A stretch of 64,000 nucleotides of DNA. Source: Methanothermococcus sp. Ax23 (GTDB taxonomy: Archaea > AGJL01 > Methanococci > Methanococcales > Methanococcaceae). Positions 1 to 15,204 of the stretch are shown here, piece by piece; positions within the stretch are counted from its first letter, which is position 1, and each line of letters starts with the position of its first letter. The translations under genes were made by a program, and so were the position numbers. The notes under the pieces are model-generated. The model was not told the DNA's origin, did no database searches, and saw nothing but the letters and a program-made list of their open reading frames with translations. The stretch spans positions 800,001-864,000 of the forward strand of contig NZ_CP157522.1 in NCBI RefSeq assembly GCF_049075655.1. Direction: 5' to 3'.

Positions 1-2012
1 TCTTTTAATATCCTATAATCAGAACTTCTTAGAACTTCATTAACTAAAAACTCCTTATACTTGGAATTATCTCCTTCTTTTTCAATTTTAATTTTTACAA
101 TGTTCTCTAATGACTCATTAATACGATTTATCAATTTTTTTCGTTTATTATATATCTCCTTTCTATTCTGTTCAAGCTCTTCCAATAATTCTTTCCGTTC
201 GTTTTTTAACTTATTTAAATTATTTTCCTTAGTTATAATTATTTCATTAAGTTTTTCCAATTCTTTCCGTTTCTTTTTCAATTCTAAGTAATCGTTATAA
301 TCCTTAACTGAAATACCATCATTCTCCATTACCAACAACAGTTCCCTCATTCTTTCTTTTTCACAGTTATACTTATCAGTCCAATCCGCATATATTTTAT
401 TAATCTTTTTATTACATTTATTCAATAACTTGATTTGCTCCATTATCTGACATTCTACCTCTTCTTTTGAATTTTTTAGCAATGATATACATTCTGATAT
501 TTTATCTCTATTGGGCAAATCTCCCATGTCCTCTATGGCTGGAGCTATTAATCTATTACTCCTAAATTCCATTAAAATTTCTTCATTATATTTTATACTG
601 TCATCCATTTGTTTTTTTATTTCATTTAAAATCCTTTTTTCATCTTCCCAATACATATGATCTTTAAGCTCATCCCCTATCCCTTTGCTATTCAATGTTC
701 GCAATTTTTCTTCAATGATTGGTAAATCTTTTATTTTAGACTTTAATTCATATATCGCTCCATCTTCCGTCAAAATCTTATTTTTATTCATTGCTAGTTT
801 TTTCAATAGTTCATCATTACATTCTTTCAAATTTTCAAAATCAATATACTGGTCAATCATATTTAGCTGACTTATACCACTATTCGCAATTTCTAACAAT
901 TCACCCTGGCCATAAAATTCTATTTTAAAAAATTCTCTCCGAAACTGGTCTATATCAATGCTGGTTTCCTCGCCACATTCTCTAAGGATTTTTGGGTTTT
1001 TACCATATACTCTTTCTATTACATAGTTCTCCCCATTGTTTGCATTCACTAACATTGTAATTTTGCCATTGTCGCCGAGAACTCCCCTAATTTTATTTTC
1101 TTCTTTTTTCCTTATATCTAGAATATCTGATGACATTCCCATAGCATATCTTATTAATTCAATAATTGTGGATTTTCCCGTACCCTTCCCCCCAATTATA
1201 CAATTTAATCCTATATTAAATTTTATGGTCTGGCTATTTAAAAATCCACCTTCAAATTTAATACCAATAATGTGGGGATGATTGGGTAATTCATCATTCA
1301 ATCTAATCCTCGAATCATAATCCCCCAATGCTAGTCGTAATCCTTCAAAACTTGGTTTATCCATTTTTATCAAGGAGTATCTCCTGCCTATATCCTCCAA
1401 TGAATGAGCATCAGAATTTTGAATGCAGGCGTACCCCCTATTATTATATTCTTCCTTGGTTTCCATTCTTGTTATTTCAATTCCCCTCAAATAAGGGGAC
1501 TCTAAAATCTCTTTTTTAGCTGGAATCAGTCTTTGTATTTCTGTGTCCAACCCACAATTGGAATCCACATGTGATAGGATAGATATGCCGCCTAATTCAT
1601 CCACTATCTTCATTATCACAGGTATTGTTTTATTGGTCACCGTATCGGATTTTCCCCTTTTATCATGTGAAATGTCAATTTTTATTAATAGCTCATCCAC
1701 TTTTTTATAGTCTAATGGGTCAAAAATTGCCAAAATGTGAACTTGCCTCTCACCCCCATGTGGTGTTGTTATTTCAACGCCTGGAAGAACCAGTAGGTTT
1801 TTACCCTTTGCCGCTTCTGAAACTTTCTCGAACCATCCTTCACTATTGTGGTCAGTTATTGCTATAATCTCTATTTTTTTATTAATTGCAGTTTCTACTA
1901 TGTCTTCTGCAGTTACATTTTTCTCCTTGTAGCATTTTGAGGCTGGTGTGTGTATGTGAAGATCGCATGTGTAAAATTTTGCTCCATTATTCTTAGATAA
2001 TATATCATTCAT
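1..2012 (-). CDS. PHP-domain + ABC/SMC-like ATPase fusion (Ppl/TrlF-like defence protein); 3' part runs off the window
   Basis: Not in the ORF track. Segments translated by hand from ATG 2012 (GGGGGT RBS): MNDILSKNNGAKFYTCDLHIHTPAS...IAITDHN...PGVEIT...HILAIF...QNSDAHS (PHP motifs), then LNCIIGGKGTGKSTIIELIRYA (Walker A, ~1170-1195) and coiled-coil-like sequence toward the edge. Confidence 0.85.
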   Translation of the reverse strand, partial: MNDILSKNNGAKFYTCDLHIHTPASKCYKEKNVTAEDIVETAINKKIEIIAITDHNSEGWFEKVSEAAKGKNLLVLPGVEITTPHGGERQVHILAIFDPLDYKKVDELLIKIDISHDKRGKSDTVTNKTIPVIMKIVDELGGISILSHVDSNCGLDTEIQRLIPAKKEILESPYLRGIEITRMETKEEYNNRGYACIQNSDAHSLEDIGRRYSLIKMDKPSFEGLRLALGDYDSRIRLNDELPNHPHIIGIKFEGGFLNSQTIKFNIGLNCIIGGKGTGKSTIIELIRYAMGMSSDILDIRKKEENKIRGVLGDNGKITMLVNANNGENYVIERVYGKNPKILRECGEETSIDIDQFRREFFKIEFYGQGELLEIANSGISQLNMIDQYIDFENLKECNDELLKKLAMNKNKILTEDGAIYELKSKIKDLPIIEEKLRTLNSKGIGDELKDHMYWEDEKRILNEIKKQMDDSIKYNEEILMEFRSNRLIAPAIEDMGDLPNRDKISECISLLKNSKEEVECQIMEQIKLLNKCNKKINKIYADWTDKYNCEKERMRELLLVMENDGISVKDYNDYLELKKKRKELEKLNEIIITKENNLNKLKNERKELLEELEQNRKEIYNKRKKLINRINESLENIVKIKIEKEGDNSKYKEFLVNEVLRSSDYRILK

Positions 2013-2076
2013 TATATTACCCCCCACTAAAAATGTAATTATATGTCATTACTTGGCATATTTACCAATATATTTA

Positions 2077-3237
2077 TTATTTCTCCCCGCCGCCATGTTT
2101 GCTCTTTCTTGGTCTTATTTTAACAGTTTTTATACATTCTTTTTCATCATCAACAAATACACATTCTCCTTTATTTAAATCTTTAATATATATTTTCAAT
2201 TCCTTCCCCATATATTCTTGATTTAACTTATTTAGTGCATTTACATCTTCCCTATTGGTAACCTTATGTGCAAAAATTATATCGCATTGGCTCAAAACTT
2301 CGTTATCAACCGCTGATGGCTGTTGGGTAGCTATTATCAAATTTAGCCCAGGCTGTCGCCCTTCCTTTGCCCACCTTATCAGTATTTCCTTAGATAATGT
2401 TGATTTTCCAGATGGAATGAAATTATGTGCTTCATCAATGAACATCCAAACTTTTGACATTTTTGACTCTAAATTTAACATTTCCCTTTTTCTTGATTTC
2501 AATCTTTGATTGAATAGATATTTTGAGATTATTGAAACCACTAAATCTCTTAATCCATGTCTTCCGCTTTCTATTGTGCTTAAATCAACGACATTTACGG
2601 CATTTGTGCTAAACACACTTTCTATTTGGATTTCTTCATCTGCAAATATCCCCCATTTCTTTGCCATATTTAATCTATTGATTAACGCTTCCTTTGTAGT
2701 TTCTTTCGATTTTGTGTCCCTTTCTATTTCGTAAATGATGTCATCTATTGTGAAAAACTTTTTTGATATAGAATCCACAGCCCTATATAATGCAATTCCC
2801 ATCATTTCATTTATGTTTATGTTAAACAAATCACACCATCCTTCTGGTGATATGTCTGAAGGATTTAAAAGAAGCTGTTTAAACTCAATTCCTTTATTTT
2901 CCAATTCTTTTACCACTTCACTATCAAACCGTTTTTCCACTTCTCCGGGAACTATCAGTTTAACAGGATATTCCCTTGCATATAGATTCCAATCCCAGAG
3001 CTCTTCCTCTTGCTCAATATTTGGTTCAGCCATAGTCCAAAATATTCCCATTGGGTCAATAATAATTTTCAAAAAATCAGGGTATTTCTCTTGGAGCTCC
3101 TCAACTAACACCCCCATGGTATAACTTTTACCACTACCCCTTTTTCCACAGATAAATATGGCATGAGATTTTGATGCATCAATATATTGGTCATCTTCTA
3201 ACTTTTCTCTAACTTTTTCCCTTCCGATAAAAAGCAT
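2077..3237 (-). CDS. HerA/FtsK-like (DUF87) ATPase
   Basis: ICGKRGSGKSYT Walker A, IIIDPMG, MFIDEAHNF Walker B, KEGRQPG and IATQQPS motifs. Start moved to ATG 3237 behind GAGGGA (track start 3249). Confidence 0.85.
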   Translation of the reverse strand: MLFIGREKVREKLEDDQYIDASKSHAIFICGKRGSGKSYTMGVLVEELQEKYPDFLKIIIDPMGIFWTMAEPNIEQEEELWDWNLYAREYPVKLIVPGEVEKRFDSEVVKELENKGIEFKQLLLNPSDISPEGWCDLFNININEMMGIALYRAVDSISKKFFTIDDIIYEIERDTKSKETTKEALINRLNMAKKWGIFADEEIQIESVFSTNAVNVVDLSTIESGRHGLRDLVVSIISKYLFNQRLKSRKREMLNLESKMSKVWMFIDEAHNFIPSGKSTLSKEILIRWAKEGRQPGLNLIIATQQPSAVDNEVLSQCDIIFAHKVTNREDVNALNKLNQEYMGKELKIYIKDLNKGECVFVDDEKECIKTVKIRPRKSKHGGGEK

Positions 3238-14566: not shown

Positions 14567-14598
14567 TTTTTGAATATTATTATATTAAATAACGTATT

Positions 14599-15204
14599 TT
14601 ATGCAATATATTTAGCCATTAAAACCAAGTCCTTATTTCCCCTAGTATGATTTTTTAAAATACCTTCTATTACAAAACCATTTTTCACAAAAAATCTCAA
14701 TCCATTTTCATTGGATTTTGGAACTTCTGCATATATTTTGCGTTTTCCCATCTCTACACATTTGTTCTCTAAAAAAGATATGAAGTATTTTCCCAAAGCA
14801 TTATCTTTATGTTTTTTATCAACTGCAATATAGTTGATTTTTAAGTAGCCTGGTTTCTCACCATAAACCATAACTCCAATTAAATCATCATAATCATTTA
14901 AATTTTTCTGTTTTCTGTTCTGATTGAATATACCAACAATATGTATGGTTTTTGGTCTAGTAATCCATTGTTTTATGGAAGATTTATGGACAAATCCCCA
15001 AATATTTGAGTAGGACAACAATATCTCTTGAACTTTATCAACATGATCAACATCAACAATATAATCAACCGTAAGATTAACTTTAACTTTATCTGCGGAT
15101 TTACTGGAAATTTTTTCATTTTTGAATTTTTTATATAAATCATAAATTTCAAACAGCATTGCTTGCTGTTTAGTTAATAATTCTTCGTTCTGCTTCGATA
15201 CCAT
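14599..15204 (-). CDS. GNAT-family acetyltransferase
   Basis: INYIAVDKKHKDNALGK (motif A) and NENGLRFFVKNGF (motif B). Confidence 0.85.
   Translation of the reverse strand: MVSKQNEELLTKQQAMLFEIYDLYKKFKNEKISSKSADKVKVNLTVDYIVDVDHVDKVQEILLSYSNIWGFVHKSSIKQWITRPKTIHIVGIFNQNRKQKNLNDYDDLIGVMVYGEKPGYLKINYIAVDKKHKDNALGKYFISFLENKCVEMGKRKIYAEVPKSNENGLRFFVKNGFVIEGILKNHTRGNKDLVLMAKYIA

Follow-up and report, generated by a model that had tools for sequence, protein, structure and literature searches.

A type III-F CRISPR effector cassette nested in the BREX-Related Capture operon of Methanothermococcus sp. Ax23

We analyzed a 64,000-nucleotide (nt) stretch of Methanothermococcus sp. Ax23 (NZ_CP157522.1, positions 800,001-864,000), referred to here as the window; its genome carries the label G000. 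The window opens with 12 open reading frames (ORFs), all on the minus strand. Seven of them belong to a BREX-Related Capture (BRC) system, four form a type III-F CRISPR effector cassette that lies between the BRC genes, and the last encodes a PHP-ATPase. A first-pass annotation, made from the letters alone, had reported the same 12 co-oriented genes at the same positions, and family scans upheld the names it gave them. The genes are listed below in the direction of reading, with E values for family matches; o246 and o169 are ORFs of 246 and 169 amino acids (aa).

14599-15204, minus strand: GNAT acetyltransferase, BRC component (PF00583, 1.2e-7)
13574-14566, minus strand: divergent TGT-fold protein, BRC component (PF01702, 1.8e-5, under the cut-off)
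12879-13619, minus strand: o246, BrxA/SspB (DUF4007)-like DNA-binding protein, BRC component (by fold)
8487-12884, minus strand: inserted segment of 4398 nt that carries the III-F cassette (from an empty-site contig of sequencing run X4)
10607-12856, minus strand: cas10f, HD nuclease with no cyclase motif (PDLC01558, 1.3e-180)
9958-10605, minus strand: cas5 of type III-F (PDLC02151, Cas5_IIIf, 1.3e-87)
9381-9968, minus strand: cas11f (PDLC01223, 1.2e-59)
8512-9384, minus strand: cas7 of type III-F (PDLC02150, 1.8e-98; PF03787, 2.9e-19)
7990-8499, minus strand: o169, small STAND-type P-loop NTPase (BrxB-like), BRC component (nSTAND3, 0.015; P-loop GDGGVGKT)
4146-8006, minus strand (4269-8006 as assembled; the stop is probably at 4146): BrxC-like (DUF6079-type) AAA+ ATPase (Walker A YGYGKTS, DEVQ)
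3239-4198, minus strand: short PglZ-type phosphatase/nuclease of 319 aa, BRC component (PF08665, 0.011; NF033449, 5.5e-4)
2077-3249, minus strand: HerA/FtsK-type ATPase, BRC component (PF01935, 2.2e-14; PADLOC HerA PDLC04105, 5.9e-28; mad8, 3.1e-24)
1-2027, minus strand, continuing for 582 nt outside the window: PHP-SMC-like ATPase (TrlF/Ppl-like) of 869 aa, with an N-terminal PHP domain and an SMC/Rad50-like ATPase

These genes are tightly packed. Five neighboring pairs overlap (TGT/o246 by 46 nt, cas5/cas11 by 11, cas11/cas7 by 4, o169/ATPase by 17 and PglZ/HerA by 11), and the remaining gaps as assembled are 32 nt for GNAT/TGT, 22 for o246/cas10, 1 for cas10/cas5, 12 for cas7/o169, 70 for ATPase/PglZ and 49 for HerA/PHP. 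The earlier statement that no gap exceeds about 70 nt holds for all of these, and the largest of them is an assembly artefact. The contigs of all four sequencing runs have an extra T in a T-run after position 4286 relative to the window. With this one-base homopolymer error corrected, the ATPase is 1286 aa long instead of 1245, stops at 4146 and overlaps the start of PglZ as it does in its homologues. A scan for sigma-70 promoters and terminators stayed at the level of shuffled sequence (87 promoters against 90.2 expected, 7 terminators against 5.3), and such a scan does not model archaeal promoters. As had been noted from the letters, the family scans found no match to a methyltransferase, cas1, cas2 or cas6 among the 12 proteins, and a whole-genome array scan placed no CRISPR array within the window.

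The seven genes other than the cas genes and the PHP-ATPase are a BRC system, which has already been published. The first-pass annotation had guessed that a BREX/HerA/TGT hybrid might be catalogued somewhere, and this proved right. In the main text of the paper that names it, BRC is a computational prediction for which no experiment is cited (Nucleic Acids Res 2026, gkag035; PMC12839542). Its seven parts are given there as PglZ, a DUF6079/BrxC-like ATPase, an active STAND NTPase homologous to BrxB, a DUF4007 protein homologous to BrxA, HerA/FtsK, GNAT and TGT. The same text places BRC in 45 taxa, sparsely but widely spread across archaea and bacteria, with HerA universal (PMC12839542). The window holds all seven components, and our survey likewise found the sparse, wide distribution and the occasional GNAT-TGT fusions described in that text; the window copy differs in having a type III-F cassette in its midst and a PHP-ATPase gene after it. 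In the published model, itself drawn from inference, GNAT/TGT marks or senses DNA and a BrxC/PglZ/HerA complex restricts invaders (PMC12839542). Neither "Cas10" nor "PHP" is mentioned in the main text of that paper, and a full-text literature search found no description of BREX-Related Capture beyond it. Nor did our literature searches, including one for Cas10 together with PglZ, or that same main text yield a composite of BRC and Cas genes. The locus brings known kinds of system together in an unusual nested arrangement.

We surveyed BRC-type loci starting from the ATPase. A large protein collection contained 35 relatives at E <= 0.001, one of them carrying PF10923, and an alignment of 30 ATPase relatives (A1) was used to find loci among species-representative genomes. 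This gave 75 distinct BRC-type loci in Methanocaldococcus, haloarchaea, many Chloroflexota, cyanobacteria, Armatimonadota and others, at which we called ORFs and ran an iterative hidden Markov model (HMM) survey with the 12 window proteins. Homologues of o246 were present at 65 of the 75 loci, TGT at 48, GNAT at 46, o169 at 43, HerA at 29, PglZ at 25 and the PHP-ATPase at 4. The recurrent order is TGT-o246-o169-ATPase-PglZ-HerA, while GNAT lies at one end or the other or is fused to TGT; the fusions are found at cyanobacterial loci. Wherever o169 occurs it lies directly upstream of the ATPase. All seven genes are present at 14 of the 45 loci that have at least 3.5 kb on each side of the ATPase, the other 30 having been excluded from this count for insufficient context or multiple ATPase hits. 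A search of IMG/VR with A1 returned one weak locus (L098).

Another 20 of the 45 full-context loci (L022, L026, L029, L033-L038, L040, L041, L045-L047, L049, L051, L052, L065, L067, L068, L070) lack STAND, PglZ and HerA and are limited to GNAT, TGT, the BrxA-like protein and the BrxC-like ATPase. Some of them, such as L041, L046, L047, L049 and L052, carry tandem o246-ATPase pairs. Because HerA is universal in the published definition of BRC, these loci may be a separate four-gene variant.

The protein assignments draw on folds, motifs and gene order as well as on family profiles, and all enzymatic activities named here are predictions. No significant match was found for the ATPase (as the 1245-aa protein), o246 or o169 in Pfam, NCBIfam or PADLOC, and Pfam recognized neither DUF6079 nor DUF4007 in the window proteins or in 10 homologues. 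For o246, none of 19 family members matched Pfam, DUF4007 models included, and a profile search against PDB sequences returned nothing. Its structural model (predicted local distance difference test, pLDDT, 90.4) has SspB (6juf, 6lb9) and BrxA (7zge) as its top folds, with a probability of 1.00, template modeling scores of 0.45-0.59 and Foldseek E values of 8e-3 to 1.7e-2; the DUF4007/BrxA-like assignment is by fold alone. The nSTAND3 matches in the o169 family are weak (0.015 and 4.3e-4). The window ATPase itself has no Pfam match and its profile found only coiled-coil noise among PDB sequences, but 5 of 30 homologues match PF10923 (BrxC_BrxD; best E 4.6e-6), and the Walker A and B motifs are invariant in the family. 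For PglZ, the profile search against the PDB gave weak matches to a PorX-type PglZ (1.4e-3) and to PglZ 9zn5 (0.025). Residues D128, T158, D240, H244, D286, H287 and H302 of PglZ are invariant among 21 sequences and form a candidate metal site.

The TGT-fold protein is the third TGT paralogue of its genome. Its model (pLDDT 82.7) matches bacterial TGT, ArcTGT and DpdA (including 7ui4) at E values near 1e-10, while the profile search against PDB sequences gave only weak matches. The motifs FDSGG, DSFD and HxCxxC..H are invariant among 15 sequences. The genome also encodes QueC, which suggests that preQ0 synthesis is possible. Self-marking through base exchange by TGT and GNAT, as proposed in the first-pass annotation, is a prediction.

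Two other known defense systems resemble parts of this locus. Like canonical BREX (types 1-6), it has BrxA-like, BrxB-like, BrxC-like and PglZ homologues in BREX order, but there is no PglX-type methyltransferase among the 12 genes, the PglZ is short, and HerA, GNAT and TGT are extra. With Dpd it shares a TGT-fold enzyme that has conserved Asp and Zn motifs and finds DpdA 7ui4 among its fold matches. In contrast to Dpd, however, the window TGT falls far under the DpdA models (NF041059, 19.8 bits against a cut-off of 200; PF23859, 16.1 against 27), nothing at the locus matches the ParB-like DpdB or the DUF328 protein DpdC, and the partner is a GNAT instead.

The four genes cas10f-cas5-cas11f-cas7 are a bona fide type III-F effector cassette. 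All four PADLOC family models match, at E values from 1e-59 to 1e-180, in line with the earlier reading of the gene order as III-F, and the cas7 gene is the single RAMP (PF03787) match in the whole genome. In a 20-sequence alignment of Cas10f, the HD residues H11, D12, H36, H66, H67 and D97 are invariant and all are kept in the window protein. By our own reading of that alignment, the expected position of the cyclase motif is occupied by TSDF. This agrees with the account of III-F systems in PMC11229360, in the part that treats them, as having the HD domain and lacking cyclase motifs and ancillary effectors. The cassette thus has the components of type III-F (Cas10f/Csx11, Cas5, Cas11f and a single Cas7) in the usual order, with no adaptation module or cas6 at the locus. 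It differs from other III-F loci, which are free-standing, in that it sits within another defense operon, has no array nearby and lacks an upstream region of its own. Cas10f proteins of Methanococcales and a few others also have a lysine-rich coiled-coil insert of about 100 residues (approximately 450-570), which most family members lack and which yields spurious SMC, JetC and LmuB matches. We judged a match of the ATPase HMM to a Cas10f ORF at locus L099 (4.4e-7) to be spurious, as it falls in this insert.

Two other III-F cassettes were found in Methanococcales. The nearer one, in a Methanocaldococcus genome (G006; Cas10f 73% identical), is free-standing and flanked by genes for diphthamide synthase and CobQ. 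The second is in a genome of the same genus as the window strain (G034; Cas10f 54% identical; L084 3835-11274), where it follows genes for a 1227-aa PLD-SNF2 helicase and a 1157-aa Eco57I-like methylase; that contig ends inside cas7. Our searches of PLSDB plasmids, INPHARED phages and IMG/VR found no Cas10f in any of them, and so gave no sign of a known plasmid or virus carrier.

The first-pass annotation had taken the Cas effector to be a built-in part of one composite system. The distribution of the two gene sets does not bear this out. In the iterative HMM survey, cas10f, cas5, cas11 and cas7 were each found at none of the 75 other BRC-type loci. Conversely, BRC genes were found at neither of the two other Methanococcales III-F cassettes and at none of 35 metagenome III-F loci, many of which are on short contigs (by our reading of the table, 12 have at least 5 kb on at least one side). 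Among 40 Methanococcales genomes (a phylum-level search covered the same 40), the BRC ATPase is present in 5 and Cas10f in 3, and both occur only in G000. The two Methanocaldococcus BRC loci have 12 and 8 nt between o246 and o169, and no other locus having both genes has a 4-kb insert between them. The cassette is therefore found in a BRC context only in this strain, an outcome that the annotation itself had set against a composite.

A vent metagenome (X4) contains the site without the cassette. A 435-nt contig (record 27, depth 75.3) joins window position 8486 to 12885 with 19 other letters between, and differs from the window at 9 positions over 8311-8486 and at 10 over 12885-13124, so that its flanks are about 95% identical. 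This joint is an empty site in a relative of the window strain. Over the cas genes the depth in X4 is 1-8, compared with 50-139 over BRC. Protein clustering shows a similar disparity, with the ATPase in an 89%-identical cluster of 17 sequences, whereas the window Cas10f is alone in its 90% cluster and its next relative is 71% identical. The cassette is most likely a later, strain-specific insertion and not a conserved part of BRC.

These results bear directly on the idea of a true composite, in which the 11 genes would be one system, with III-F as the RNA-guided sensor or targeting module of BRC or with the BRC proteins as accessory effectors that replace cyclase signaling. Several features would suit it. 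The cassette is inserted within the operon with reading frames kept, it brought along no native upstream region, and cas10 is preceded by a strong ribosome-binding site. A III-F complex would have a use for a partner nuclease, given that the relevant part of PMC11229360 assigns these systems neither cyclase motifs nor known ancillary effectors. The PADLOC HerA model labelled 'Type III coevolved' matches the BRC HerA (4.7e-14), and the cas genes are under constraint, with ratios of nonsynonymous to synonymous divergence (dN/dS) of 0.17-0.25. However, these ratios reflect mostly history before the insertion, the nearest cassette is a stand-alone unit with its own mini-array in G006, and both the absence of co-occurrence at 75 BRC-type and 37 other III-F loci and the empty site speak against a composite. 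We consider it decidedly unlikely. Less probable still, in our estimate, is a specific form in which the BRC operon has captured the III-F effector as an RNA-guided trigger, so that recognition of a transcript would recruit or license BrxC/PglZ/HerA on invader DNA. If true, this would be the first BREX-type system with programmable, crRNA-directed targeting (crRNA, CRISPR RNA), seen at the moment of its origin.

The cassette was most likely gained by recent horizontal transfer from a lineage related to that of the Methanocaldococcus cassette, to judge from sequence comparison. Window positions 8537-12877 align with the G006 cassette at nucleotide identities of 82% (3976 nt) and 77% (384 nt); G006 belongs to another Methanococcales family. 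By the Nei-Gojobori method, synonymous divergence (dS) for the four cas genes relative to that cassette is 0.59-0.67, and the dN/dS values above come from the same estimates. When the BRC and flanking genes are set against M. indicus, dS reaches 0.88-2.2 or is saturated. From this contrast, BRC looks old at its site and the cassette younger than the split of the two families.

Homology to G006 ends 21 nt upstream of the cas10 ATG, just spanning a GGAGG-type ribosome-binding site, and the upstream intergenic region of approximately 330 nt that precedes the G006 cassette is not present in the window. Because the cassette did not bring its own upstream region, its transcription presumably enters from the BRC side, and because only 12 nt lie between the end of cas7 and o169, read-through of the cassette is presumably needed for the four BRC genes that follow. 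The cassette and BRC are thus probably co-transcribed, as a situation forced by the insertion. The single transcript proposed in the first-pass annotation is plausible from the sequence on these grounds, as a consequence of insertion rather than as the sign of a built-in system.

With no array in the window, the crRNAs for this complex most likely come from two distant arrays of the same genome. These have 92 repeats (51 + 41) of 30 nt and 90 spacers, and one of them adjoins a type I-D-like module (Cas10d, Cas7d, Cas5d, Cas3, Cas4, Cas1, Cas6). The G006 cassette has a mini-array of two repeats and one spacer (L082 10030-10130) about 110 nt beyond cas7f. Its repeat is identical at 28 of 30 positions to the repeat of the window genome and is the sole copy of this repeat family in G006, compared with 244 copies in G034 and 96 in the window genome. 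The G006 cassette and repeat look as if they had travelled together. Arrays lie near 6 of the 35 metagenome III-F loci, and the five repeats that could be extracted end in TTGAA, TGAAA or TGAAAT. From the host arrays, the related repeat and the intact HD residues, we infer a III-F complex that would be fed in trans and would act through its HD nuclease. Spacer 47 of array 1 matches the strain's own chromosome (C1:296238-296273) at 34 of 36 positions; it may be a self-targeting spacer or mark an integrated element.

The only cas6 gene of the assembly lies in the type I-D-like module (C1:146703-147405) and is broken as assembled, into a 180-aa ORF and a remainder in another frame. The break is located at a homopolymer stretch. 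It may be an assembly error or a real frameshift, and the first is suggested by its position at a homopolymer run, like the proven error at 4286. A broken cas6 would favor the view of an accidental insertion that has impaired one module or both, either through polar effects on STAND, BrxC, PglZ and HerA or by leaving the cas genes silent, with neither promoter nor Cas6. Such an arrangement would be transient and decaying. Two further observations fit that view: the filled form has been seen in this strain alone, with the empty form dominant in the single metagenome that holds a relative, and the upstream BRC genes and the four downstream ones now lie 4.4 kb apart. Yet, with the 4286 error allowed for, each of the 11 ORFs is intact and as long as its homologues, catalytic residues are retained in Cas10f, TGT and PglZ, and the cas6 break is possibly an artefact. 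We regard a disruptive insertion as unlikely.

In our view the locus is probably a nested defense island of three independent modules, in which co-transcription has been forced by insertion. The first module is the old, chromosomally anchored seven-gene BRC system. The second is the III-F cassette, which came by horizontal transfer into the 19-nt spacer that parts the BrxA-like gene from the STAND gene. Of its native upstream sequence it kept only about 21 nt, with the ribosome-binding site among them. The cassette would probably be transcribed from the BRC promoter or one farther upstream, and the four BRC genes that follow would probably depend on read-through. Most likely the III-F complex works independently; crRNAs loaded from the two distant arrays would be processed in trans by the type I-D Cas6, and binding of target RNA would switch on the HD nuclease of Cas10f without cyclic-oligoadenylate signaling. 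The TrlF/Ppl-like PHP-ATPase would be the third module, appended downstream. The data show the gene identities, the conservation of BRC, the insertion and the horizontal transfer; co-transcription, the source of the crRNAs and every biochemical activity are deduced. We found no evidence of functional coupling between the cassette and BRC.

Some observations weigh against this reading. The empty site is known from one 435-nt contig in one metagenome. Runs X1-X3 have the filled form, and their longest pieces show no listed difference from the window, but because they are possibly the same strain we gave them no weight on the question of persistence, about which they are silent. If the frameshift in the sole cas6 is real, the III-F complex would be without processed crRNA. 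Finally, the insertion is seamless, with no BRC ORF damaged, gaps of only 22 and 12 nt, and no G006-type upstream region carried over. Expression of the two modules would therefore be linked, and the pair could already be a target of selection.

Assuming independent modules, which is our view, the locus is an ordinary though neat case of defense-island nesting. CRISPR effector cassettes that have no upstream region of their own and sit inside another defense operon are rare, and this one shows how array-less III-F cassettes may spread and be expressed. The locus can also serve to test directly whether two immune systems become functionally coupled once they are fused physically and in transcription. 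BRC, so far only computational, is present here in a culturable methanogen lineage with a natural pair of filled and empty alleles. The strain could thus be a tractable test bed for BRC, including 7-deazaguanine or acetylated marks in DNA and restriction by PglZ/HerA.

The PHP-ATPase at the downstream end had been called a Ppl-like effector. It shares with the single-gene defense systems Ppl and TrlF an N-terminal PHP domain and an SMC/Rad50-like ATPase, and PADLOC Ppl (PDLC02208) matches at 5.9e-35. The 675-aa truncated protein scored 341.5 bits against TrlF NF045780 (cut-off 350; 1.6e-101), but only 183.9 bits against the Ppl equivalog NF042955, whose cut-off is 1000. The protein is nearer to TrlF than to Ppl. 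As noted above, it has homologues near BRC at only 4 of the 75 loci. Outside the window, its gene is followed by a convergent threonyl-tRNA synthetase gene.

On the other side of the island, the co-oriented run extends upstream to position 18105 with genes for a BcrAD-type activase, an HGD-D-like protein and a MiaB-like protein, the first two of which form a conserved flank:

15170-16798, minus strand: conserved flank, BcrAD-type activase and HGD-D-like genes (by Pfam)

The same two flank genes, again overlapping GNAT by 35 nt, lie ahead of BRC in two Methanocaldococcus genomes (L004 5524-7277; L005 5671-7286). We considered these genes as possible BRC members and rejected them, since they are present at only these two of the 75 loci, as would fit housekeeping genes that flank one shared site in the chromosome. 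Their amino acid identity to M. indicus (0.77-0.78) lies inside the range for BRC (0.50-0.83), so divergence cannot separate the two. BRC thus adjoins the same HGD-D/activase genes in two Methanococcales families, yet is present in only 5 of the 40 genomes, a pattern that points either to an old site from which BRC was often lost or to a favored place for insertion. One further joint was seen in X1, where a contig piece of depth 4.6 connects position 231 to 15818 with 37 other letters between, bypassing the whole island. It lies outside the supported joints and may be a chimeric contig or a rare deletion variant.

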